Source: Stellaceae bacterium
Lineage (GTDB): Bacteria; Pseudomonadota; Alphaproteobacteria; ATCC43930; CGMCC-115725
Assembly (NCBI GenBank): GCA_035604035.1
Contig: DATNJF010000404.1
Coordinates: 10,853-74,852, forward strand
DNA length: 64,000 nt
Direction: 5' to 3'
This document shows, piece after piece, positions 4,848 to 42,461 of this stretch (positions are counted from its first letter, which is position 1; each line of letters begins with the position of its first letter). The translations under genes were made by a program, and so were the position numbers. Below the pieces are notes generated by a model. The model made no database searches. It saw only the letters and a list, made by a program, of their open reading frames with translations, and was not told the origin of the DNA.

Positions 4848-5978
4848 ATGACCGTCGCCGACAACATCCTCGTCTACCGCGACCGCATCGTGCCGCGCTC
4901 GGAGGTGCATTTCCTGCGGCGGCTTTACCTGGCGTTCGACCGGCTGCGGCCGGTGTGGATCGGTCGGCATAAAGGCGACGGGCTGGCCGAGTTGGGCTAC
5001 GAGCCGCTATTTCTCGGCCGCGGCGGCCCGCTCGGCGCGGTCGACCGCGCCTTGTTCAAGCATTTCGGCACGCTGCCACCGGTGCCGGATTTGCGCGCGC
5101 TGAAGCCGCGCCTCGTGCACGCGCATTTCGGCCGCGGCGGGGCGCTGGCCCTGCCGATCGCGCGGGCGCTGAAATTGCCGCTGGTCGTACACTTTCACGG
5201 CGGCGACGCCACCAAGGAAAAGCACTACCGCAAACGGCTGCTGCCGACGATCTACCAGCAGCGCCTCAAGGCGCTCAAGGATGAGGCGGCGCTCTTCATC
5301 TGCGTCTCCGACTTCATCCGCCAGCAGCTGCTCGCGCGCGGTTTCCCGCCCGAAAAGCTCGTCGTCCACCGCTATGGGGTCGAGATCGACACGAGCCTGC
5401 CGGCCGATCCGCCCGAGCCGAGCGGCGAGGTGCTGTTCGCCGGACGTTTTGTCGAGAAGAAAGGGATCGGCTACCTACTCGAGGCGATGCGCCGGCTCGA
5501 GGACGAGCCGGGCGAATTGGAGCTGGTGCTGGTCGGCGACGGGCCGATTGCCGACGAGCTAAAGCGCCAGGCGGCGCCCTTGAAACGGGTATCGTTCGCC
5601 GGCTGGCTGCCGAATGCCGAGCTGCGCCGCCGGATGCACGGCGCTCTCGCGGTCTGCGTGCCCAGCGTTCACGCCGAGGACGGCGACGCCGAGGGTCTCC
5701 CCAATGTCGTGATCGAGGCGATGGCGGCCGGTGCGCCGGTGATCGGATCGCGTCATGCCGGCATCGGCGAGGCGGTGGCGCACGAGCGGACCGGGCTCCT
5801 CGTGCCGCCGGGCGACGCGGAAGCGCTCGCCGCGGCGCTGCGCCGGTTGCGCGACGAGCCCAAGTTGCGCGGCTCGCTCGGCGCCGGCGCACGCCAGGTC
5901 GCAATCGCCGAGTTTGACGCGCGCGTGCAATCGCAGCGGCTCCAGCAAAAATTGCTGGAGATCATCGAAAAAACCTAG
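4848..5978 (+). CDS. glycosyltransferase family 4 (GT-B, group 1)
   Basis: C-terminal EGLPNVVIEAMAAGAPVIGSRHAGIGEAV...TGLLVPPGD, the E-x7-E GT4 signature. Start chosen at MTVADNILVY. Confidence 0.8.
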   Translation: MTVADNILVYRDRIVPRSEVHFLRRLYLAFDRLRPVWIGRHKGDGLAELGYEPLFLGRGGPLGAVDRALFKHFGTLPPVPDLRALKPRLVHAHFGRGGALALPIARALKLPLVVHFHGGDATKEKHYRKRLLPTIYQQRLKALKDEAALFICVSDFIRQQLLARGFPPEKLVVHRYGVEIDTSLPADPPEPSGEVLFAGRFVEKKGIGYLLEAMRRLEDEPGELELVLVGDGPIADELKRQAAPLKRVSFAGWLPNAELRRRMHGALAVCVPSVHAEDGDAEGLPNVVIEAMAAGAPVIGSRHAGIGEAVAHERTGLLVPPGDAEALAAALRRLRDEPKLRGSLGAGARQVAIAEFDARVQSQRLQQKLLEIIEKT

Positions 5979-8336: not shown

Positions 8337-9454
8337 TAAACCGCGCCCCGCGCCACGATCGGCCAGATTGCCTCGACCCGGTCGCCGCGCACCCCGACAT
8401 ACCAGTCGTACAGGTTGACGGTCGGGTCGCAATGGCCCGGCACCAGCTTGATCTTGTCGCCGAGCTTCAGCCGGTTGGTCGCGGCATTGATGGTGAGCTT
8501 GCCGTGCTCATCGGAGGCGCGCTCATAGGTGGCGGCGGGCTCCTCCCAGACGGTGGGCATGCCGGAATCGACGCTGAGCGCCTTCAACCCGGCATCGACG
8601 ATGGCGCGATCCTCGGTTGGCCGGCTCATCACCGTCGCCCAGACGAAGAGGCTCGGCTCAAAGGCGCGGGTCTGGCCGCCGTCGCGGTCGAGGTTCCGGC
8701 CATAATCGGCGTCCATGAAGATGTACGAGCCGCATTGCAGCTCGGTGTAGACGCCGCTCGCGGTCTCGAACTCGAACGTCCCGGTGCCGGCGCCGGTAAC
8801 GTTGGCGCACTGGATGCCGTTCTGCGCGAGCAGGTCGCGGGTGCTTCCGGCCTTCTCGATCGCGCCGGCGATCGCCTTCTGCCGCTCGTCCCAGCCGCGC
8901 AGATGCTGGGCCGAGCCGTGATAGGCCTGCAATCCAGCGAAGGAGAGATACCGCGCGTCCATGATCTTGCGGGCGAGATCGAGCGCCGGGGCGCCGGGTT
9001 CGACCCCGCAGCGGTTGCCGCCCATATTGACCTCGACATGGACGGGGAGGGTGATCCCGGCCTCGCCCGCCGCCGCGTCGAGCGCGACGATTTGGGCCGG
9101 GTCGTCGGCGCAGGTGGCGATGCGCGCGCTGCCGGCCAGCCCCATCAGCCGGCGCAGCTTCTGCTTGCCGACGATCTCGTTGGTGACGAGCACGTCCTTG
9201 ACCCCGCCATAAACCATCGCCTCGGCTTCGCTGACTTTCTGGCAGCACACGCCGACCGCGCCTAGCTCCATCTGCTTCAGGGCGATGACCGCGCATTTAT
9301 GGGTCTTGGCATGCGGGCGCAGCCTGACTTTGCCGCCAGCCCGCTCGGGCAGGCGTTTGAGATTACGCTCGAACGCGTCGAGGTCGATGATGAGGGCCGG
9401 GGTGTCGACCTCGTCGAGCGACATGCCGATCTCGGCGGGCGGGCGGGTGGTCAT
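8333..9454 (-). CDS. DSD1-family PLP-dependent enzyme (D-serine dehydratase / D-threonine aldolase-like)
   Basis: RLRPHAKTHKC PLP-lysine motif, alanine-racemase-like N-domain and a C-terminal HCDPTVNLYD motif. ATG at 9454 has a GGAGG Shine-Dalgarno sequence. The ORF-track start at 9472 is TTG. Confidence 0.8.
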   Translation of the reverse strand: MTTRPPAEIGMSLDEVDTPALIIDLDAFERNLKRLPERAGGKVRLRPHAKTHKCAVIALKQMELGAVGVCCQKVSEAEAMVYGGVKDVLVTNEIVGKQKLRRLMGLAGSARIATCADDPAQIVALDAAAGEAGITLPVHVEVNMGGNRCGVEPGAPALDLARKIMDARYLSFAGLQAYHGSAQHLRGWDERQKAIAGAIEKAGSTRDLLAQNGIQCANVTGAGTGTFEFETASGVYTELQCGSYIFMDADYGRNLDRDGGQTRAFEPSLFVWATVMSRPTEDRAIVDAGLKALSVDSGMPTVWEEPAATYERASDEHGKLTINAATNRLKLGDKIKLVPGHCDPTVNLYDWYVGVRGDRVEAIWPIVARGAVY

Positions 9455-9577
9455 CGGCAAGCCTCCGCGCAATGTGACCCAGCGAGGCTTGCGCAGCGGG
9501 CGGAGAAATGCAACACGGGTAACAGGCGAAGATCGGCGATAGGCCGGCTATCGGGTACCGGGCGACGGGAGGGAACA

Positions 9578-10912
9578 ATGGCGGATACGGCGGTTTCGGC
9601 GGTCGAGACGGCGCTGGAAAACCAACGCATCGGCAGCCTGCAGGTCCGTGTGGCGATCCTGTGCACGCTGATCCAGATCTGCGACGGCTTCGACATCAAT
9701 TCGGTCGCCTGGGCGGTGCCGCGGCTGATCGATGTGTGGCATCTGCCGCCGCCGGCATTCACCAGCGCCTTTCTGTGGTCGAGCATCGGCATTCTCGTGG
9801 GCGCGCTGTCGGCCGGACCGATCGGCGACCGCGTCGGGCGCAAGCCCCTCCTGGTCGTCAGCCTGATCATCTTTGGGCTTGCCTCGATCGCAAGCGCTTA
9901 CTCGCCCTCGCTGCTGATGCTGACGATCACGCGATTTTTCACCGGGCTCGGGATCGGCGGTGCGTTCCCCGGTGCGGCGTCACTGGCGGGCGATTACGCG
10001 CCGCACCGTCGTCGCGCGCTGATGATCATGCTTAGCTTCACCGGCGCGCCGCTCGGCGGTTTCCTCGGCGGCCAGATCGTGGCGCTGTGGTTGCTGCCGC
10101 AATTCGGCTGGCAGTCGATCTTCATCGCCGGCGGCGTGTTCCCGCTGATCCTGGTGCCGGCGCTGCTGATTTGGTTGCCGGAGTCGCCGCGCTTTCTCGC
10201 TCATAAGGCGAATCCGTCGGCCCGCGATACCGCGCTGCTCAGGCGCCTCGACATCGAGCCGGGGCAGGGCCACTACATCGATGTCGCGCAGGGCAATCCA
10301 ATCGGGATGCTGTTCAGCCGCGGATACGCACTGCAAACGGTGCTGATGTGGATCATCTTCTTCTGCAGCCTCTTAAACCTGTTCCTATTCGGATATTGGA
10401 TGCCGACGGTGTTTAAGCTGATCGGCTACACTCCGGCACAGGCGGTGTTCGCCTCGAGCCTGCGGGATTGCGGCGCGATCTTCGCGGTGCTCTATCTCGG
10501 TTGGGCGATCGACCGCGTCGGGCCGGAGCGCTCGCTGGCACTGCATTATGCGGTGGGCTCGGTGTTCATCGCGATGATCGCGCTGGTGGCGTTGCCTTAC
10601 GCCTTGATGCTGGTCTTCACGTTCTTCGCCGGGATGACCATAATCGGCAGCCAGACTGGCGCTAACGCGACCTGCGGCAAGCTCTATCCGGCGCGGATGC
10701 GGACCAGCGGGCTCGGCTGGGCGCTCGGCATCGGCCGGTTGGGCGGCATCGTCGCGCCGCTCTTGGGCGGATATCTGTTGTCGCTTGGCCTGCCGCCGAC
10801 GCAGATCTTTCTCAGCGCCTGCGGCTTTGCGATCGTCGCGGCGGCGGCGACGGCGCTGCTGCATTTCCGCGGCAGCCGTGTCGAGGCCTTACGAGAGAGC
10901 ATCGCGTCATGA
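9578..10912 (+). CDS. MFS transporter (aromatic acid:H+ symporter-like)
   Basis: 12-TM profile with GPIGDRVGRKP (MFS motif A). Start at MADTAVS, preceded by GGGAGGGA. The upstream part of the ORF is antisense to the neighbouring gene. Confidence 0.8.
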   Translation: MADTAVSAVETALENQRIGSLQVRVAILCTLIQICDGFDINSVAWAVPRLIDVWHLPPPAFTSAFLWSSIGILVGALSAGPIGDRVGRKPLLVVSLIIFGLASIASAYSPSLLMLTITRFFTGLGIGGAFPGAASLAGDYAPHRRRALMIMLSFTGAPLGGFLGGQIVALWLLPQFGWQSIFIAGGVFPLILVPALLIWLPESPRFLAHKANPSARDTALLRRLDIEPGQGHYIDVAQGNPIGMLFSRGYALQTVLMWIIFFCSLLNLFLFGYWMPTVFKLIGYTPAQAVFASSLRDCGAIFAVLYLGWAIDRVGPERSLALHYAVGSVFIAMIALVALPYALMLVFTFFAGMTIIGSQTGANATCGKLYPARMRTSGLGWALGIGRLGGIVAPLLGGYLLSLGLPPTQIFLSACGFAIVAAAATALLHFRGSRVEALRESIAS

Positions 10913-30018: not shown

Positions 30019-30953
30019 GCGGAAGTTATCAGTCCTCTGGGCGGGGTCTGCTGGCGGCTGACCCGGCCGGCGATTTCGATGCCGCGCCGCCGCGCATCTC
30101 GTTCGAATTCTTCCCGCCGAAGACGCCCGAAATGGAAGAGCGGCTGTGGGAAGTCGTCAAACGCGTCGAGCCCTTGGGGCCGCGCTTTGTCTCGGTGACT
30201 TACGGCGCCGGCGGCTCGACCCGCGAGCGCACCCACGCGACGGTTCGCCGCATCCGCCAGCAGACGACATTAGAGCCAGCGGCGCATCTGACCTGCGTCG
30301 CCGCGACCCGCGCGGAGATCGATGCGGTCGCCGCCGCTTATTGGGAGGCCGGCATCCGCCACATCGTCGCCTTACGCGGCGACCCGCCCGGCGGGATGGG
30401 AAGCGGCGAGCGTTACGCGCCGCATCCTGGCGGTTATCCTTTCGCCGCCGACCTTGTCGCCGGGCTGAAGCGGGTCGCCGATTTCGAGATCAGCGTCGCC
30501 GCCTATCCCGAGACCCACCCCGAAGCCCGAAGCGACGACCACGACCTCGACAATCTCAAACAGAAACTCGACGCCGGCGCCAATCGGGCGATCACCCAGT
30601 TCTTTTTCGACGTCGACCTGTTCCTGCGCTTCCGCGACCGCGCCGCCGCGGCCGGGATCGTCGTGCCGATCGTGCCCGGCATCCTGCCGGTGACCAATTT
30701 CGCCCAGCTGAAGCGGATGAGCGCGACCTGCGGCGCCTCGATCCCCGATTGGATGGCCGGGCATTTCGACGGGCTCGACGACGACCCCGACACGCGCCGC
30801 CTCGTCGCCACCTCGCTTGCCGCCGAGCAGTGCCGCCGGCTCCAGGCAAACGGGGTCAACGAGTTCCATTTCTACACGCTCAACCGCGCCGATCTCATCG
30901 TGGCGATCTGCCACATGCTCGGCGTTCGCGCGCCGAAGCCGGTCGCCGCCTAG
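30015..30953 (+). CDS. metF: 5,10-methylenetetrahydrofolate reductase
   Basis: ISFEFFPPKT, FVSVTYGAGGSTRERT, ANGVNEFHFYTLN. Confidence 0.9.
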   Translation: MSGSYQSSGRGLLAADPAGDFDAAPPRISFEFFPPKTPEMEERLWEVVKRVEPLGPRFVSVTYGAGGSTRERTHATVRRIRQQTTLEPAAHLTCVAATRAEIDAVAAAYWEAGIRHIVALRGDPPGGMGSGERYAPHPGGYPFAADLVAGLKRVADFEISVAAYPETHPEARSDDHDLDNLKQKLDAGANRAITQFFFDVDLFLRFRDRAAAAGIVVPIVPGILPVTNFAQLKRMSATCGASIPDWMAGHFDGLDDDPDTRRLVATSLAAEQCRRLQANGVNEFHFYTLNRADLIVAICHMLGVRAPKPVAA

Positions 30954-30963
30954 AGACACGGCC

Positions 30964-33900
30964 ATGGCGCATCTCCTCGACTACCTCGCCGACTGCGTGT
31001 TGCTGTGCGACGGCGCGATGGGCACCGAGACCCAGGCGCGCAACCTCGACATCGTCCGCGACTTCCACGATCACGAGAACTGCACCGAGATCCTCACCGA
31101 GAGCCGGCCCGATTTGGTGCGCGAGATTCACCGCGGCTACCTCGCCGCCGGATCGGACGCGATCCAGACCAACAGCTTTGGCGGCTCGCCGATCACGCTC
31201 AACGAGTTCGGCATCGCCGACAAGGCGTTCGCCCTCAACAAGCTGTCGGCCGAGCTGGCGCGCGAGACCATCGCCGAGTTCGCCCATGACGGCCGCACCC
31301 GCTTTGTCTTCGGCTCATTGGGGCCGGGGACGCGGCTGCCGAGCCTCGGTCATGTCGCCTATCAACCGCTGGAAGACGCGCTCACCGTCCAGTGCGACGG
31401 GCTCGTCGCCGGCGGGGTCGACGCGATCCTCATCGAGACCTGCCAGGACCCGCTGCAGATCAAGGCCGCGGTCAACGGCGCCAAGCGCGCGCGCGCGACA
31501 GCAGGCAAGGACACCCCGATCTTTGTCCAGGTCACGGTCGAGACCACCGGCACTTTGCTGGTCGGCGCCGACATCGCCGCGGCGGCGACGATCATCGACG
31601 CGCTCGACGTCAACGGCCTCGGGCTCAACTGCGCCACCGGCCCGCGCGAGATGGCCGAGCATGTCAAATTTCTCGGCGACAACTGGCCGAGGCTCATCTC
31701 GGTGCAGCCCAATGCCGGGCTGCCCGAGCTGGTCAGCGGCCGCACCCAATACCCGCTTTCGCCCGAAGAATTGAGCCAATGGCTCGAGCGCTTCGTGCTC
31801 GAGGACGGCGCCAACATCATCGGCGGCTGCTGCGGCACCGAGCCCCGGCATATCGCCGCGCTCGACGCGATGCTGCGCCGCATTGGCCGCGACCGCCCGC
31901 GTCCCGTACCGAAGCGGCGGCAGCCGGCATGGACGCCGTCGGTCGCCTCGCTCTACAGCCAGGTGAGCCTGCGCCAGGAGAACGCCTATCTGTCGATCGG
32001 CGAGCGCTGCAACGCCAACGGCTCGCGCGCCTTCCGCCGCCTGCAGGAGCAACACGATTGGGACGGCTGCGTCGAGATGGGGCGCGAGCAGGTCAAGGAA
32101 GGCTCGCACACGCTCGACCTCTGCACCGCCTTTGTCGGCCGCGACGAGATCGCCGACATGACCGAGATGGTCACCCGCATGCGCGGGTCGGTCAACGCGC
32201 CTCTAGTCGTCGATTCGACCGAATACCCGGTGCTCGAAGCGGCGATGGCGCTCTACGGTGGCAAGCCGATCATCAACTCGATCAATTTCGAGGACGGCGA
32301 GGACGCGGCCGAGAAGCGGGTAAAGCTGGCGCGCCGGTTTGGCGCCGCCGTCATCGCGCTGACCATCGACGAAACCGGCATGGCCAAGGAGGTCGACCAC
32401 AAGCTCGCGCTGGCGCAGCGGCTTTACGACTTCGCCTGCGTCAAGCACGGGCTGCCGCCGTCGGACCTCCTGTTCGACCCGCTGACCTTCACCATCTGCA
32501 CCGGCAACGCGGACGACCGCAGGCTCGGCCTCAACACGCTCGACGCGATCGAGCGCATCGCCAAGGCGCTACCCGAGTGCCAAATCATTCTAGGATTATC
32601 GAATATATCATTCGGCCTCAACCCGCCGGCGCGGCAGGTGCTGAATTCGGTGTTCCTCGACCACGCGCTCAAGCGCGGCATGACCGGCGCGATCGTGCAT
32701 TTCTCCCGCATCCTACCGCAGCACCGCATCCCCGAAGCCGAATGGCAGGTCGCCGAGGATTTGATCTTCGACCGCCGCCGTGACGGCCCAGGGGACCAAT
32801 ACGACCCGCTGCAGGCGTTCATGGCCCTCTTCGAGGACCGCACGATCGAGAAGGAGGAGAAGCAGGGCCGGCCGGAAAACCTCGAGGAACGTCTCGCCTA
32901 CCGCATCGTCGAGGGCGACCGGCTCGACCTCGAAGCCGATCTAGACCTGGCGATGCAGGCGCACTCGCCGCTCGACATCATCAACGAGCACCTGCTGGGC
33001 GGGATGAAGACGGTCGGCGACCTCTTCGGCGCCGGCAAGATGCAGCTCCCCTTCGTGCTGCAATCGGCCGAAACCATGAAGACAGCGGTCAAGTACCTCG
33101 AACCGCACATGGAGCGGGTCGAGGGCCAGGAGAAGGGCACAATCGTCCTCGCCACGGTGCGCGGCGATGTTCATGACATAGGCAAGAACCTAGTCGACAT
33201 CATCCTCACCAATAACGGCTACCGGGTGGTCAATCTCGGCATCAAGCAGCCGATCGGCGCGATCCTCGATGCCGCCAAGGAGCACCGGGCGCACGCCATC
33301 GGCATGTCGGGCCTTCTGGTCAAATCGACCGTGGTGATGCGCGAGAATTTGGAAGAGATGAGCCGCATGGGGCTCGACGTGCCGGTGATGCTCGGCGGCG
33401 CCGCGCTCACCCGCCGCTATGTCGAGGAGGATTGCGTCAAGGCCTACGAGGCGGGTCGCGTCGCCTACGCCCGCGACGCGTTCGACGGCCTCGCCTTGAT
33501 GGACCGCATCGTCGGCAACGATTTCGACGGCTATCTCGCAGAAGTGCAGGAGAAGAGTGCCGGGCGGCCGAAGAACCCGTCGCGCAAATTGGGGCGCGCC
33601 GCCGACGCGCGGGTGCTGCGGCCGATCGATTTCGAGGAAATCCGCCTGCGCCGGGCCGAGCTGACCAGCGGCGTCGCCGTGCCGAACCCGCCGTTTTGGG
33701 GCGCGCGGGTGCTAGAGCGCGTGCCGGTCAAAACCGTCGCGTCCTACCTCAACGAGCGCATGCTCTATCAATTCCAGTGGGGCTTCCGGAAGGAGGGCCG
33801 CAGCCTCGCCGAATACAAGAAATGGGCGCGCGGCGAGCTGCGCCCGCTGCTGTCGCGGATCATGGACATCGCCATCCGCGAGAACATCCTCCAGCCCCAG

Positions 33901-34485
33901 GCCTCCTACGGCTATTGGCCGTGCGCCGCTCAGGGCAACGCGGTGGTGCTGTTCGATCCCGACGGCGGCCCGGGTGGAAAAGAACGCGAGGTCGCGCGCT
34001 TCGACTTCCCGCGCCAGAACAAGCGGGACGGGCTCTGCATCGCCGATTTCTTCCGCGACATCGAAAGCCCCGAGCGCGACGTCATCGGGCTGCAGGTCGT
34101 GACCATGGGCCGCCGCGCCTCGGAGGCGGCGCGCGAGTGGTTCGCCGCCGACCGCTACCAGGATTATCTCTATCTGCACGGGCTCTCGGTCGAGATGGCC
34201 GAGGCCTTCGCCGAATATGTCCACAAGCGCATCCGCGGCGAACTCGGCTTCGCCGCCGAGGAGGCGCGCGACCACGACGAGATGCTGGCGCAAGGCTATC
34301 GCGGCAGCCGCTATTCGTTCGGCTACCCGGCTTGCCCCAACCTCGCCGACCAGGCCCAGCTGCTGGCGCTGCTCAACGCCGACGCGATCGGCCTCGCCCT
34401 CACCGACGAAGACCAGCTCGACCCCGAGCAATCGACCTCGGCGATCGTCGTCCACCACCCGCAAGCCAAGTACTTTTCGGTGTGA
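30964..34485 (+). CDS. metH: cobalamin-dependent methionine synthase
   Basis: 1173 aa. Hcy-binding domain (LLCDGAMGT), pterin-binding domain, B12-binding motif GDVHDIGKNLV, and the AdoMet activation domain (RYSFGYPACP). Confidence 0.95.
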   Translation: MAHLLDYLADCVLLCDGAMGTETQARNLDIVRDFHDHENCTEILTESRPDLVREIHRGYLAAGSDAIQTNSFGGSPITLNEFGIADKAFALNKLSAELARETIAEFAHDGRTRFVFGSLGPGTRLPSLGHVAYQPLEDALTVQCDGLVAGGVDAILIETCQDPLQIKAAVNGAKRARATAGKDTPIFVQVTVETTGTLLVGADIAAAATIIDALDVNGLGLNCATGPREMAEHVKFLGDNWPRLISVQPNAGLPELVSGRTQYPLSPEELSQWLERFVLEDGANIIGGCCGTEPRHIAALDAMLRRIGRDRPRPVPKRRQPAWTPSVASLYSQVSLRQENAYLSIGERCNANGSRAFRRLQEQHDWDGCVEMGREQVKEGSHTLDLCTAFVGRDEIADMTEMVTRMRGSVNAPLVVDSTEYPVLEAAMALYGGKPIINSINFEDGEDAAEKRVKLARRFGAAVIALTIDETGMAKEVDHKLALAQRLYDFACVKHGLPPSDLLFDPLTFTICTGNADDRRLGLNTLDAIERIAKALPECQIILGLSNISFGLNPPARQVLNSVFLDHALKRGMTGAIVHFSRILPQHRIPEAEWQVAEDLIFDRRRDGPGDQYDPLQAFMALFEDRTIEKEEKQGRPENLEERLAYRIVEGDRLDLEADLDLAMQAHSPLDIINEHLLGGMKTVGDLFGAGKMQLPFVLQSAETMKTAVKYLEPHMERVEGQEKGTIVLATVRGDVHDIGKNLVDIILTNNGYRVVNLGIKQPIGAILDAAKEHRAHAIGMSGLLVKSTVVMRENLEEMSRMGLDVPVMLGGAALTRRYVEEDCVKAYEAGRVAYARDAFDGLALMDRIVGNDFDGYLAEVQEKSAGRPKNPSRKLGRAADARVLRPIDFEEIRLRRAELTSGVAVPNPPFWGARVLERVPVKTVASYLNERMLYQFQWGFRKEGRSLAEYKKWARGELRPLLSRIMDIAIRENILQPQASYGYWPCAAQGNAVVLFDPDGGPGGKEREVARFDFPRQNKRDGLCIADFFRDIESPERDVIGLQVVTMGRRASEAAREWFAADRYQDYLYLHGLSVEMAEAFAEYVHKRIRGELGFAAEEARDHDEMLAQGYRGSRYSFGYPACPNLADQAQLLALLNADAIGLALTDEDQLDPEQSTSAIVVHHPQAKYFSV
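34449..34485 (+). repeat. direct repeat copy 1: the functional 3' terminus of metH (candidate attL-like junction)
   Basis: cgtccaccacccgcaagccaagtacttttcggtgtga encodes VHHPQAKYFSV*. It is repeated at 36317-36353. Confidence 0.85.
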
Positions 34486-34517
34486 TCGCGACACGCCGCC
34501 ATGGGAACGGAGCGGAA

Positions 34518-35657
34518 ATGCGCGTCGAGATAAACCCGAGATTGCTGCGCTGGGCGCGGGAACGCTCAGGATACGATCCCGACGCCCTCGCTCATCGATT
34601 TCCGAGACTTGATGAGTGGGAACGCGGCGACGCACAGCCGACGCTCAAGCAGCTTGAGCAGTTCGCCAGTGCGGTCCACGCGCCGATCGGCTACCTGTTT
34701 CTGCCCGAGCCGCCTGTCGAGCGCGTGCCGATTCCGGATTTCCGGACGGTCGGAAATGCGCATATCGAGCGACCGTCGCCTGACCTGCTAGAAACGATCT
34801 ACATCTGCCAGCAGCGCCAAGAATGGTACCGCGACTTCCTTCGCTCGACGGCTGCTGACCCGCTTCCATTCGTCGGTTCGACGACCGTGAATACGGCAAT
34901 AGAGACGGCGGCGGGCGCTATTCGCGGGGCGCTTCACTTCGACCTCGCAGAGCGGGCACGGATGCCGACATGGACGGAGGCGCTGCGGCGGTTCATTGAA
35001 CAGGCAGACGCGATCGGCGTCCTGGTCATGGTCAGCGGGGTGGTCGGTAGCAACAACCGGAGAAAACTCGATGCGGACGAGTTTCGCGGCTTTGCCCTTT
35101 GCGATGACCGGGCTCCACTGGTCTTCATCAACGGGTCCGACACCAAGTCTGCGCAGATGTTCACACTGGCCCACGAGTTGGCGCACATCTGGCTCGGCCA
35201 GTCCGCGCTCTCCGACATGGAACCGGTGTCCACGCCGGCCCACGCTGTCGAGCAGTGGTGCAACCTTGTCGCGGCCGAACTACTTGTTCCGCTCGCGGCG
35301 GTACGCGCCGAATATCGGCGGGACGCAGGTCTGCGCGCCGAGGTGGATCGGCTGGCAAGGCGGTTCAAGGTAAGCACGCTCGTCGTTTTGCGTCGCATCC
35401 ATGACGCGGGCGGTCTAACGCGAGACCAACTTTGGGCGGCATACCGAGCCGAAGTCGAACGCCTCCTGGCGATCCCTCGGGGAAGCGGCGGAGATTTCTA
35501 CCTGACCCAGGCTGCACGCGTCGGGAAGCGGTTCGCCCGTGCCCTCGTGGCGAACACGCTGGAGGGACAGACCCTCCATCGTGACGCTTTCCACCTGCTC
35601 GGATTTTCGAAGCTTGCAACATTCCGCGAACTTGGCCGCAGTCTGGGTGTCGAGTGA
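34518..35657 (+). CDS. XRE-like HTH plus ImmA/IrrE-family (COG2856, M78) zinc metallopeptidase
   Basis: 379 aa. The N-terminal helix-turn-helix-like segment RLLRWARERSGYDPDALAHRF...PTLKQLEQFASAVHAPIGYLF, and HELAHIWLG (HExxH, aa 219-223, nt 35172-35186). Confidence 0.8.
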   Translation: MRVEINPRLLRWARERSGYDPDALAHRFPRLDEWERGDAQPTLKQLEQFASAVHAPIGYLFLPEPPVERVPIPDFRTVGNAHIERPSPDLLETIYICQQRQEWYRDFLRSTAADPLPFVGSTTVNTAIETAAGAIRGALHFDLAERARMPTWTEALRRFIEQADAIGVLVMVSGVVGSNNRRKLDADEFRGFALCDDRAPLVFINGSDTKSAQMFTLAHELAHIWLGQSALSDMEPVSTPAHAVEQWCNLVAAELLVPLAAVRAEYRRDAGLRAEVDRLARRFKVSTLVVLRRIHDAGGLTRDQLWAAYRAEVERLLAIPRGSGGDFYLTQAARVGKRFARALVANTLEGQTLHRDAFHLLGFSKLATFRELGRSLGVE

Positions 35658-36145
35658 TGGCGTACCTGCTGGACGCCAATGTGTTCATGCAGGCGAAGAA
35701 TCTCCATTACGGCCTCGATTTCTGTCCGGCGTTCTGGGATTGGCTGATCGAGGCCAACGCGGCCGGCCGGGTTTTCAGCATCGAGAAGGTCGGCGATGAA
35801 ATCGACGCCGGTGCAGACGAGCTTTCGACCTGGGCGGTGGCGCAGGGAGAAGGGTTCTTCCTGAGGCCCGACGCCGCCATTCTTCCGGCTCTCGGCGCGG
35901 TCAGTGCGTGGGCTACGGGTCAGGCGTATGAGCCTGCTGCCGTGAACACGTTCTTGCAGGTCGCCGACTATTACCTAGTCGCCCATGCCCTGGCGCATCG
36001 TCACACCGTCGTGACCCACGAGATCGCATCGCCGTCGACCAAAAAGATTAAGATTCCCAACGCTTGCATCGGCGTTTCCGTAAAATGCATGACGCCGTTC
36101 GAGATGCTTCGACATGAAAGAGTGCGCTTCGTGCTTGGCCATTAA
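35657..36145 (+). CDS. DUF4411-family (PIN-like nuclease fold) protein
   Basis: MAYLLDANVFMQAKNLHYGLDFCPAFWDWLIEA...VFSIEKVGDEI is typical of the DUF4411 N-terminus. Its ATG overlaps the peptidase TGA by 1 nt (GTGATG). Confidence 0.75.
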   Translation: MAYLLDANVFMQAKNLHYGLDFCPAFWDWLIEANAAGRVFSIEKVGDEIDAGADELSTWAVAQGEGFFLRPDAAILPALGAVSAWATGQAYEPAAVNTFLQVADYYLVAHALAHRHTVVTHEIASPSTKKIKIPNACIGVSVKCMTPFEMLRHERVRFVLGH

Positions 36146-36316
36146 GAGATGAGCGAAAACGGGTCGTGCTGGGCTATCCCGCCCGCATCCTGCCGAAGGA
36201 CGTGGCGGCCGAGAAAATCCTCGGGGCGCGCACGCTGACCAATCTCGACAGTGAGCGGCCGACCCGGCTCGCCAATGCGCACCGCGATCTCGACGAGAGC
36301 CACTGACCTGATCGGG

Positions 36317-36353
36317 CGTCCACCACCCGCAGGCAAAATACTTTTCGGTGTAG
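36317..36353 (+). repeat. direct repeat copy 2: orphan copy of the metH 3' terminus (candidate attR-like junction)
   Basis: cgtccaccacccgcaggcaaaatacttttcggtgtag also translates to VHHPQAKYFSV*. It differs from copy 1 at 3 synonymous positions and in the stop codon. Confidence 0.85.
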
Positions 36354-36562
36354 TTCTGGCTTCCGCACGCCAAGGCGCATACCACCGTGTACTCTTTTTG
36401 TTCTTAACAAGACAGTAATTGCGTTTATATAGTGTCGCCATCGGGTCCGCGATATGCGGACAGCGTGAACGCGGGCGCCTGTTAATTTCCAGCAGATACA
36501 GGCGGAACGAAACGGGGTCGGATATTTTTGCGAGAAAACACCGATTTCAGCTGCGCCGGTTG

Positions 36563-36635
36563 CTGTTATCTCGCTGTTTTCGCTGCTGTTCCGCCACTGT
36601 TATCCCGCTGTTTTCACCGCAGTTATTTCGCTGTT
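36563..36635. repeat. array of seven C(T/A)GTT(A/T)T cores spaced 11-12 bp apart (helically phased, iteron-like)
   Basis: Cores start at 36563, 36574, 36586, 36597, 36608, 36620 and 36631, within ...tgctgttatctcgctgttttcgctgctgttccgccactgttatcccgctgttttcaccgcagttatttcgctgttttg... Confidence 0.7.
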
Positions 36636-36829
36636 TTGAACAAGAAATATGAATAGATCCAAGGCGTTGGCTTTTTAGCGCGGAGTATCAGGAGTATCAG
36701 CGGGGCGTTTCTTCGTTACTCGAACGCACTGCGGCGGGTCGATGAGACAGTCGCCCAAGGGCACCGGCCTGCGCCGGCATGGGTGAGGGCTGTTGCTCAA
36801 CCTCACCCAGTTTGCTAAGCCGCGCGGTG

Positions 36830-37783
36830 ATGAAGACGCACCAGATCGCGATCCTCGGCGGGTCGGGGTTTATCGGCCGCTATGTCGTCAAGCGCCTGGC
36901 CGGGCGCGGCGAGGCGCTGACCGTCGGCGGGCGTCACGCGAGTCAGGCCACATTCCTCAGGCTGAAGGGCGAGGTCGGCCAGGTCGGGCTGGTCAACATC
37001 GCCATCGACAGCGAGGCGATGCTGCCGGAGTTTCTCGCCGGCAAGGACGCGCTGATCAATTGCGTCGGCATCTTGAGGGAGCACGGCGCGCAGACATTCG
37101 ATCGCGTCCACCATGCGGCGCCGGCGCGGCTGGCGCGGCTGGCGCGCGAGGCCGGGGTCGCGCGGCTGATCCACATCTCGGCGATCGGCGCCGACCCGCG
37201 CTCAACCTCCGCCTATGCGCGCTCCAAGGCGGCGGGCGAGCAGGCGGTCAAGGATGCCTTCCCGACCGCGACGATCCTGCGCCCGTCGATCGTGTTCGGC
37301 CCGGAGGACGAATTCTTCAACCGCTTCGCCGGGATGGCGCGGCTGTCGCCGTTCGTGCCGCTGATCGGCGGCGGCGAGACGCGGTTCCAGCCAGTCTATG
37401 TCGGCGATGTCGCCGACGCGGTGATCCGCGCGCTCGACGATCCCGCCGCTTCCGGCCGCACCTACGAGCTCGGCGGGCCAAAAATCTATACGTTCCGCGT
37501 GCTGATGGAGCTGATGCTCGCCGAGATCAAGCGCAAGCGCTGGTTTATCGACCTGCCCTTCGGCCTCGCCGCGTTGCAGGCGCGGCTGATGGCGATCCTG
37601 CCCAACCCGCCGCTGACAGTCGACCAGGTCGAGATGCTCAAGCGCGACAATGTCGTCTCGTCGGGGGCGCTGACCCTGAGTGCGCTCGGCATCGAACCCA
37701 CCGCGGTCGAGGCGATCATCCCCTCTTATCTCGACCGCTTCCGCCCCGGCGGCTGGTACGACCGGCGCCGCGCCGTCGCCTGA
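36830..37783 (+). CDS. NAD(P)-binding NDUFA9-like / NmrA-type epimerase-dehydratase family protein
   Basis: ILGGSGFIGRYVVKRL Rossmann motif and YARSKAAGE (YxxxK). Start at MKTHQIAILGG. Confidence 0.8.
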   Translation: MKTHQIAILGGSGFIGRYVVKRLAGRGEALTVGGRHASQATFLRLKGEVGQVGLVNIAIDSEAMLPEFLAGKDALINCVGILREHGAQTFDRVHHAAPARLARLAREAGVARLIHISAIGADPRSTSAYARSKAAGEQAVKDAFPTATILRPSIVFGPEDEFFNRFAGMARLSPFVPLIGGGETRFQPVYVGDVADAVIRALDDPAASGRTYELGGPKIYTFRVLMELMLAEIKRKRWFIDLPFGLAALQARLMAILPNPPLTVDQVEMLKRDNVVSSGALTLSALGIEPTAVEAIIPSYLDRFRPGGWYDRRRAVA

Positions 37784-37800: not shown

Positions 37801-38283
37801 ATGGCTGCCGATAAAGAAGACACGATCTATCTCGACGTCCCCGCCGGCCGCGTGGTGATCGAGATGCGCCCCGATCTGGCGCCCGACCATTGCGCCCACA
37901 TCAAGGGGCTGGTGCGCCGCGGCTTTTACGACGGCATCGTCTTTCACCGCGTGATCGAAGGCTTCATGGCGCAGACCGGCGACCCGACCGGGACCGGCAC
38001 CGGCGGCTCAGGGACCCGGCTCAAGGCGGAGTTCTCCGCCGAGCCGCACGTCCGCGGCGTGCTGTCGATGGCGCGCGCCTCCGACCCCAACAGCGCCGAC
38101 AGTCAGTTTTTCATCTGCTTCGCCGACGCCAATTTTCTCGACCGGCAATACACGGTGTGGGGCAACGTGGTGTCGGGCATGGAGCATGTCGACGCGATCA
38201 AGAAGGGCAGCGGGTCGAGCGGCTCGGTCTCCGACCCCGACAAGATCGTGAAGATGCAAATCGCCGCCGACGCGGCGGATTAG
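37801..38283 (+). CDS. ppiB: cyclophilin-type peptidyl-prolyl cis-trans isomerase (cytoplasmic)
   Basis: FHRVIEGFMAQTGDPTGTGTGGSG and NSADSQFFI motifs. No signal peptide. Confidence 0.9.
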   Translation: MAADKEDTIYLDVPAGRVVIEMRPDLAPDHCAHIKGLVRRGFYDGIVFHRVIEGFMAQTGDPTGTGTGGSGTRLKAEFSAEPHVRGVLSMARASDPNSADSQFFICFADANFLDRQYTVWGNVVSGMEHVDAIKKGSGSSGSVSDPDKIVKMQIAADAAD

Positions 38284-38838
38284 AGGCTGAGCGCCCGATG
38301 AAGCTCTGGAGCCGGTTGGTCCTGATCGTCGTCGCGCTCGCCTGGGGCGCTGGTCCGGCGATGGCGCTCGACCCCGAGAACGCGCTTTACCTGGATCTGG
38401 CCTTTGGCCGCGTCGTCATCGCCTTGCAACCCGACGTGGCGCCAAAGACCTGCGCGCAGATCAAAAAGCTGGTGCGCGCCGGGTTTTATAACGGAATCGT
38501 CTTCCACCGCGTGCTCGACGGCTTCATGGCGCAGACCGGCGACCCGACCGGCACCGGCACCGGCGGCTCGGGGCATCCCTTGAAGGCCGAGTTCTCGTCC
38601 GAGCCGTTCGCCCGCGGTGTCGTCGCCATGGCCCGCACCTCCGACCCCAACAGTGCCGACAGCCAGTTCTTCATCACGTATGCCGTCGCGCCGCAGCTCG
38701 ACGGCAAGTACACGATCTTCGGTCATGTCGAATCGGGGATGGAGTTCGTCGACAAACTGAGAAAGGGCGATCAGGCCCATAACGGCATGGTCGTCAACCC
38801 CGACAAGATCATCAAAATGCAGGTGGTGGCCGACGTCA

Positions 38839-40224
<1,386 letters not shown>

Positions 40225-42301: not shown

Positions 42302-42349
42302 CGGCATCGAGCAATTCTGTGAGGTCGAAGCAGCCTAAAATTTGCCCTT

Positions 42350-42430
42350 GGCCGGGCTTGACCCGGCCATCCACGTCTTGTGGCGCGGTCGCCTGCGATG
42401 CAGACGTGGATCCCCGGGTCGAGCCCGGGG
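42350..42430. repeat. three consecutive GC-rich hairpins (REP-like intergenic palindromes)
   Basis: ggccgggcttgacccggcc (42350-42368); atccacgtct...agacgtggat (42369-42411, 10-bp arms); ccccgggtcgagcccgggg (42412-42430). Confidence 0.6.
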
Positions 42431-42461
42431 GAGGGGATGATTTCTAGAGCTTCTCACGTAG

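Follow-up and report, generated by a model that had tools for sequence, protein, structure and literature searches.

A duplicated metH terminus and displaced gene tails beside integrase-free toxin-antitoxin islets in Stellaceae-like soil alphaproteobacteria

Results

Gene Content of the metH-to-Epimerase Interval

The stretch of DNA analyzed here (64,000 nucleotides from a Stellaceae bacterium, hereafter called the window) carries metH, the gene for B12-dependent methionine synthase, whose last codons recur a short distance downstream of the gene. Between the two copies lies a small islet that encodes a helix-turn-helix (HTH) ImmA-type peptidase and a DUF4411 protein, and a gene for an NAD-dependent epimerase/dehydratase follows (Table 1). 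An earlier note on this DNA had named the ImmA and DUF4411 genes between the repeats, and Pfam matches confirm both. It had overlooked two further components, namely the remnant of an MmeI-like gene within the insert and the 5′ region of a DUF5681-family gene after the distal copy. The G+C content at third codon positions (GC3) is 0.72-0.73 in the insert and 0.89-0.91 in the flanking genes, and this difference supports the conclusion that the repeat brackets foreign DNA.

Table 1. Features of the metH-to-epimerase interval, with window coordinates
Feature	Position	Strand	Basis
metH, B12-dependent methionine synthase, 1173 amino acids	30964..34485	+	Pfam S-methyl_trans, Pterin_bind, B12-binding_2, B12-binding, Met_synt_B12; public gene calls on identical contigs
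Proximal repeat copy, functional last 11 codons plus TGA of metH	34449..34485	+	Sequence, pattern, repeat search
Spacer from metH stop to ImmA start, 32 nucleotides	34486..34517	.	Homologous in all four cassette-bearing lineages, unrelated in all others
HTH-ImmA/IrrE (M78) zinc peptidase, predicted antitoxin/regulator, RmrA-like	34518..35657	+	Pfam, PADLOC, PDB
DUF4411 PIN-like protein, predicted toxin	35657..36145	+	Pfam DUF4411, E = 5.2e-54; PDB 9vzy chain D
Remnant of MmeI-like type IIG restriction-modification gene, C-terminal region	36162..36295	+	72-82% nucleotide identity to L003, L022, L027 and L115 genes (intact or partial, downstream of metH)
Junction filler, 21 nucleotides, origin unassignable	36296..36316	.	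Alignment
Distal repeat copy, displaced non-coding metH tail	36317..36353	+	Sequence, pattern
Orphaned 5′ region of DUF5681-family gene	36385..36680	+	Alignment with DUF5681 upstream regions in L117, L123, L187, L190 and L110
NAD-dependent epimerase/dehydratase gene, conserved right flank of hotspot in clade	36830..37783	+	Pfam; synteny in L019, L102, L105, L106, L108 and L109

Read directly from the sequence, the end of metH is CGTCCACCACCCGCAAGCCAAGTACTTTTCGGTGTGA and the second copy, 1868 nucleotides (nt) downstream of the first, is CGTCCACCACCCGCAGGCAAAATACTTTTCGGTGTAG. The two agree at 32 of 37 nt, with identity blocks of 15 and 13 nt, and both encode VHHPQAKYFSV*. Their differences (caa/cag, gcc/gca, aag/aaa and tga/tag) are confined to three third-codon positions and the exchange of one stop codon for another. 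The claim in the earlier note that the metH terminus is duplicated with synonymous differences only is therefore correct, with copies that begin at 34449 and 36317, one base ahead of the coordinates given there. The distal tail lies outside any longer reading frame, as an in-frame TGA is present three codons upstream. This pair of tails is the sole meaningful repeat within the interval, and the insert was searched for inverted repeats at its termini and for ends like those of transposons, without a hit.

There is next to no chance that the distal copy is a fortuitous match or an assembly artifact, an explanation for which only the shortness of the copy (37 nt) can be cited. A degenerate pattern for VHHPQAKYFSV* matches the window twice, at the two positions in Table 1, and gave no match in 100 dinucleotide-preserving shuffles. 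Furthermore, positions 34000-37000 are 100% identical in at least 14 independently assembled contigs from different samples, which were retrieved by exact-protein look-ups with the ImmA, DUF4411, epimerase and peptidyl-prolyl isomerase (PPIase) proteins. These results, together with analogous scars at seven other loci (see below), effectively rule out such an origin. Because the exact-protein look-ups yielded only contigs with complete identity over this region, the islet is fixed in the population represented by the window.

The pattern of differences between the tails is that of coding sequence. Of all single-base changes that can be made in the 11 sense codons, 21 of 99 (21%) are synonymous, and three synonymous differences out of three would thus be expected with p ~0.01 under neutral decay. 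Both tails therefore diverged while coding and were joined later. Because every difference is synonymous, one of them must, on this codon evidence, stem from a different metH allele. The third-position difference (3 of 11) also fits the divergence at 4-fold degenerate sites between species of the clade (0.18-0.34), and the tails look like two alleles that were coding until recently.

The right end of the insert does not resemble the terminus of a mobile element. The MmeI-like remnant is reported by gene callers as a 46-amino-acid open reading frame (ORF) at 36166-36306 with a weak PADLOC REase_MTase_IIG match. Its homology to intact genes stops after ...AHRDLD (36295), and intact genes run about 70 codons further, such that the junction passes through a broken reading frame. 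The filler that follows is only marginally similar, in collinear order, to metH positions -60 to -38 (p = 0.0075-0.03), and a possible CTCGAC microhomology is present at the junction. We rejected an extension of the distal copy upstream to about 36290, since part of that match (CTCGAC) belongs to the MmeI remnant and the remainder is marginal.

The ImmA/DUF4411 pair is predicted to be a Rosmer-like toxin-antitoxin/defense pair. The ImmA/IrrE protein has a HELAH motif and matches Pfam Peptidase_M78 (E = 5.8e-17), PADLOC RmrA (E = 1.7e-17) and chain A of PDB entry 9vzy (E = 8.6e-23), while the DUF4411 protein matches chain D of that entry, a “DUF4411 family protein” (E = 8.8e-07). The ImmA stop and the DUF4411 start share one base (TGATG). 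Thus, as in the toxin-antitoxin class that combines HTH-ImmA with a PIN-like protein, an HEXXH-type M78 peptidase is paired in an operon with a predicted toxin gene. This pairing corresponds to a predicted three-component architecture of HTH, DUF955 (ImmA) and PIN-like proteins (Matelska 2017, PMC5499597), and it falls within the ImmA/Rosmer zone of toxin-antitoxin and defense systems (Ernits 2023, PMC10440598). Like the three-component systems and RosmerTA, the window has a gene for an HTH-M78 peptidase that overlaps a PIN-like DUF4411 gene downstream of it, and a homologous ImmA-DUF4411 pair has been deposited as a complex (PDB 9vzy). In contrast to RosmerTA, the DUF4411 protein of the window matches no PADLOC RmrT model, and toxicity and phage defense are putative properties of this pair.

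At E ≤1e-30, over 7,900 homologues of the HTH-ImmA protein are found. Many are 72-77% identical to it and yet are labeled Acidobacteria, Planctomycetes, Thermoanaerobaculia or Rhodospirillaceae. Such cross-phylum conservation is unusually high for a toxin-antitoxin or defense component and suggests either very wide recent transfer or strong constraint. In a metagenome-assembled genome (MAG) labeled Acidobacteriia, an ImmA-DUF4411 pair with 74% identity is flanked by hsdS and hsdR within a type I restriction operon (locus L192, 2960-11484), and at L191 the cassette adjoins another PIN toxin-antitoxin pair. No mobility genes were seen near the cassette in these two contexts from other phyla. A different ImmA-DUF4411 pair, 28% identical, is present at L006.

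Comparison with Related Loci

We surveyed about 166 related loci, each designated by L and a number, which were drawn from 80 species genomes, 80 metagenome contigs and context look-ups. The nearest relatives of the window in the genome database are MAGs labeled Stellaceae or Alphaproteobacteria. The three closest homologues of the ImmA peptidase (93, 90 and 89% identity) occur in related species, at L102/L103, L105 and L106, all of which have the order metH-ImmA-DUF4411-epimerase. The window is collinear with L102 from metH to the MmeI remnant (88.4% over 30783-36289) and again from 36813 through the epimerase gene (88.6%), and in this comparison the stretch in between (36289-36813) is specific to the window lineage. 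In L102 the MmeI remnant is more complete and a Rieske-like gene comes after it, and L105 and L106 have neither remnant nor tail. A distal metH copy was looked for in these cassette carriers (L102, L105 and L106), and none was found.

The MmeI remnant has decayed differently in the window and in L102. The L102 version (about 5520-5535) has an in-frame internal deletion of 33 nt (LDAAVAAAYGW) and keeps its natural stop, while the window version (36286-36295) keeps the first codons of the LDAAVAAAYGW stretch and lacks the end of the gene.

Other members of the clade reveal the interval in different states. L019 and L109 are empty sites, where the metH stop is followed by about 65-95 nt and then by the epimerase gene, with a single copy of the tail and no insert. 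The earlier note had proposed a search for an empty site in which metH ends with the distal version and continues into 36354 onward. Empty sites do exist in the clade, but none has the exact distal version followed by that sequence. L108, also of this clade, has a different 1-kb insert after metH. Elsewhere, intact MmeI-like genes lie directly after metH (L003, L022 and L115), or a PstI-type restriction system is found with an IS1595 transposase and another MmeI fragment (L027). At L123, a VapC-Phd pair stands between metH and the DUF5681 module without any duplication.

These loci have a conserved anchor beside a variable region. Nucleotide identity in metH is 80-92% across the clade, divergence begins at the first base after its stop in nearly every lineage, and the ORFs downstream of metH at 130 loci fall into 276 clusters. 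By this comparison, metH is the conserved left gene of the hotspot and a candidate recombination anchor. The codon states of the proximal tail are like those of the cassette-bearing L106 and L105, and those of the distal tail are like L019, L002 and L123. These states are only suggestive as to which tail is native, and any assignment of a recipient allele is tentative.

The DNA that follows the distal copy has recognizable homologues. Positions 36385-36680 contain a promoter-like site (36404-36433), a leader and an array of GCTGTT motifs with 11-bp periodicity (36562-36635), and this region aligns with the upstream regions of stand-alone DUF5681 genes (about 160 amino acids) at L117, L123, L187 and L190, as well as with a remnant at L110. 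A DUF5681 coding remnant was searched for in the window and none was found, so that only the upstream module survives. At L110, L117 and L123, metH is followed by a homologue of 36385-36680, and therefore the distal copy and the sequence after it look like an older metH-downstream arrangement. No homologue of 36354-36830 was found by blastn downstream of metH in the 80 species genomes, and the link to DUF5681 came only from metagenome loci.

The DUF5681 module (L117, 1578-1860; L123, 2318-2575; L187, 7738-7985; L190, 9783-10004; L110, 1455-1650) is conserved and consists of a promoter box of the GTTCTTGACAA type, a leader some 100 nt long and 4-6 copies of GCTGTT(A/T)TC at 11-bp spacing, just ahead of the ribosome-binding site. 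The array may serve for phased binding of a protein. The stand-alone DUF5681 family is small (109 proteins found) and occurs in unrelated chromosomal contexts. We considered whether DUF5681 might mark the end of a prophage or island, and rejected this idea because the homologues stand alone in those unrelated contexts without an integrase, there are no PHROG matches, and no coding remnant exists in the window. Two further features lie between this module and the epimerase gene. Positions 36682-36700 hold an exact tandem of two GGAGTATCA units, and a GC-rich hairpin (GGGTGAGG...CCTCACCC, 36760-36800) just 5′ of the epimerase gene may represent the terminator that once belonged to the lost DUF5681 gene.

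The cassette and the distal copy appear to differ in age. Between the window and L102, divergence at 4-fold sites is 0.18-0.19 in metH and the epimerase gene and 0.33-0.41 in the cassette genes. The cassette values overall (0.33-0.51) are at least those of the flanks, L105 and L106 give a similar picture, and the trees of the cassette and of the flanks are roughly congruent. The low GC3 of the cassette probably places its 4-fold sites nearer the neutral rate. From these divergences, the cassette seems to have been resident at the locus at least since the window and L102 lineages split. If the distal tail had been non-coding for that long, an absence of change at its 23 constrained positions, all of which are unchanged, would have a probability of about 0.01 at most, given at least 0.2 substitutions per site, and the copy is therefore likely to be younger than the arrival of the cassette. 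Alternatively, the window lineage may have obtained the cassette together with a 3′ portion of metH from a relative. Judged by these divergences, the original entry of ImmA/DUF4411 is not the event that the repeat records, under either reading. We also observe that the GC3 of the cassette is still 0.72-0.73, against 0.89-0.91 in the flanks, despite its apparent residence since before the L102 split, which indicates that amelioration is slow or is opposed by selection.

Displaced 3′ pieces of metH were found downstream of an intact metH at seven other loci among those surveyed (Table 2). An orphaned, 5′-truncated old 3′ end is kept downstream in the window, L115, L133 and L174, and at L008 the farther of two copies is the more decayed. 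The pieces start at metH positions about -37 (window), -37 to -45, -56, -110, -151 and about -530, with no common core. At L008, the insert of about 420 nt between metH and the first displaced tail (9189-9609) is AT-rich, lacks an ORF and is full of CCGGGAAT- and GGAACCGGG-type repeats; it could be either a miniature element or a region with a regulatory role.

Table 2. Displaced metH pieces at other loci
Locus	Displaced piece	Associated insert
L115	~37-45 nt, decayed, reads HHPQTEHFSV*	300-nt insert with small coiled-coil ORF, then intact MmeI gene
L133	56 nt	1.3-kb insert with HicB-like gene, then type IIG-like gene
L174	109 nt at 94% identity, with a single frameshift and a single stop	738-nt insert with VapC and Phd/YefM
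L008, first copy	151 nt	Preceded by ~420-nt non-coding insert
L008, second copy, further out	~500 nt, stops and frameshifts	~1.8 kb including DUF4279 gene
L151, L157	Old internal metH fragments without terminus	–

Integrase Survey and Alternative Origins

The earlier note had interpreted the two tails as attL and attR of an integrative element, either decayed or non-autonomous and mobilized in trans. On this reading, a tyrosine integrase would have recombined at the metH 3′ end and a replacement terminus would have been supplied. The Escherichia coli elements e14 and phage 21 provide a precedent, since they integrate in icd, supply a replacement 3′ end and leave an icdC pseudogene. As at icd, the target gene remains functional through a new, mostly synonymous 3′ end, and the old end persists as a downstream fragment. 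The part of this interpretation that stands is that direct repeats of a gene 3′ end flank foreign DNA while metH stays intact. The 15- and 13-nt identity blocks could hold a crossover core, the scars of the window and L115 start at similar positions, and the tandem copies at L008 resemble the accretion of elements at one att site.

What finds no support is that the repeat is the footprint of an element. Public gene calls with Pfam matches confirm, as the earlier note had stated, that no integrase or recombinase gene lies at the islet, and there is none within ±10 kb. Each of the eight inserts examined is small (0.3-2 kb) and without a recombinase. An indirect survey by Pfam counts, made with 212 ORF representatives from the 130 loci, did not show Phage_integrase, or any integrase, to recur near metH among the best 25 families with at least two members; these counts give an upper bound only, and single-member families are incompletely represented in them. 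A scan for an integrase catalytic motif near metH, made with a crude motif and without a positive control, returned nothing credible. Unlike the icd case, the window has no integrase, fixed core or element termini, and its element-side junction runs through a truncated gene. Repeat lengths and breakpoints differ among loci, with a span of about 37 to about 500 nt, the fragments at L151 and L157 lack the terminus altogether, and the cassette-bearing sister lineages (L102/L103, L105 and L106) have no distal copy. We therefore consider a decayed or trans-mobilized integrative element to be an unlikely source of this arrangement.

Another possible origin is suggested by the restriction gene remnant that abuts the distal copy. 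Insertions with long target duplications are documented for all types of restriction systems, with repeats of 30-400 bp, some of which overlap gene 3′ ends, and without mobility genes (Nobusato 2000; Furuta, Abe and Kobayashi 2010, PMC2853133). By analogy, an MmeI-like gene or the whole insert would have entered the locus and duplicated at least the last 37 nt of the recipient metH. The proximal copy would later have changed synonymously or by allelic replacement, and most of the MmeI gene would have given way to the toxin-antitoxin pair. The anatomy is similar, as a small selfish module lies between direct repeats of more than 30 bp (37 nt) that overlap a gene 3′ end, the target is single copy at the insert-free L019 and L109, a type IIG remnant is present, mobility genes are lacking, and L003, L022 and L115 carry intact MmeI-like genes directly after metH.

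However, published long target duplications are near-identical, whereas the copies in the window differ at 5 of 37 positions and appear to be diverged alleles (86% identical, synonymous), and the main cargo here is a toxin-antitoxin pair. The intact MmeI-like genes at L003 and L022 are not accompanied by a duplicated tail. The displaced tails of L115 and L133 do not surround the restriction gene but are found upstream of it. In addition, the cassette and remnant common to the window and L102 look older than the distal copy. For these reasons, we think it quite improbable that a target duplication produced the repeat.

We assign a very low probability to a further scheme, in which the last 40-150 nt of metH would serve as a capture site where a recombinase encoded elsewhere serially inserts integrase-less toxin-antitoxin or restriction cassettes with replacement tails. 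Such a site would amount to an integron-like platform on a housekeeping gene.

Additional features were observed in and beyond the interval. An Rfam search of 34300-37000 at E of 1 or less matched no structured RNA. Tandem cyclophilin-type PPIase genes (37801-38283 and 38298-38900) follow the epimerase gene; they are about 75% identical over 300 nt, and the pair is conserved in relatives. Positions 42345-42435 contain a 34-nt inverted repeat (82% complementary, 23-nt loop) that has the appearance of a hairpin like those of repetitive extragenic palindromic sequences or terminators.

Discussion

On balance, and with some reserve, we think that the locus is probably a recombinant of two versions of the metH-to-epimerase interval that arose through one homologous crossover and one illegitimate join, without a dedicated recombinase. 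The interval would be a recombination hotspot that gathers small addictive or defensive modules. One version would have carried metH, the HTH-ImmA/DUF4411 pair and the remnant of the MmeI gene, and the other would have carried metH, the DUF5681 promoter region and the epimerase gene. A homologous crossover in metH, or in or beyond the epimerase gene, would have been accompanied by an illegitimate join of the broken MmeI remnant (36295) to a position between 37 and about 59 nt upstream of the metH stop in the other version. The product would contain a complete metH, the insert, the orphaned tail of the other allele and the downstream DNA of that allele. A dedicated recombinase would not be required for these steps, and toxin-antitoxin cargo may help such rare products to persist.

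Recombination between two versions would explain why the tails differ in the manner of coding sequences, why a broken gene and filler occupy the junction, why the displaced pieces vary in length, and why older copies, as at L008, lie further out and are more decayed.

Several points weigh against this reading. Neither parental allele was recovered, as a distal tail that continues into 36354 onward occurs in none of the relatives and the population contigs, at least 14 in number, are 100% identical across the region. When identity to L102, L106 and L019 is computed in sliding windows, no step appears in metH or the epimerase gene, which leaves the crossover without a location in a thin sample of close relatives. 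In experiments, illegitimate recombination of this sort occurs rarely (PMC5361080). The scars in the window and L115, which are independent, start nearly alike (about -37 to -45), and this could hint at a preferred site. Finally, the survey for integrases was indirect, as it relied on counts for the best 25 families and on a crude motif that had no positive control.

Homology-facilitated illegitimate recombination was proposed as the cause of the sequential displacement seen in effector-immunity arrays of the type VI secretion system in Vibrio cholerae (Kirchberger 2017, PMC5361080), and likewise of the displacement of Rhs C termini (Jackson 2009, as cited in PMC5361080). The metH loci share with these systems a conserved upstream anchor, an old 3′ part pushed downstream as an orphan, and the lack of an integrase. 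Likewise, repeated events give arrays in which the oldest pieces are outermost, as at L008. The differences are that a gene for a housekeeping enzyme serves as the anchor here, that a few dozen functionless nt are displaced, and that the cargo consists of toxin-antitoxin or restriction modules rather than toxin tips and immunity genes.

Both the cargo and the type of scar are already known, and the locus reveals no new mechanism. New here are the hotspot itself, at the metH 3′ flank in Stellaceae-like soil alphaproteobacteria, and the repeated displacement of the tail of a housekeeping gene by toxin-antitoxin or restriction islets that lack mobility genes. The locus is a clean natural case in which small defense or addiction modules enter and shuffle at a chromosomal hotspot without a mobility gene, and it indicates that a highly conserved housekeeping gene can act as the homologous anchor. 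The orphaned gene tails are datable scars that record the order of events. Systematic searches for such scars could map integrase-free hotspots in uncultured soil bacteria.

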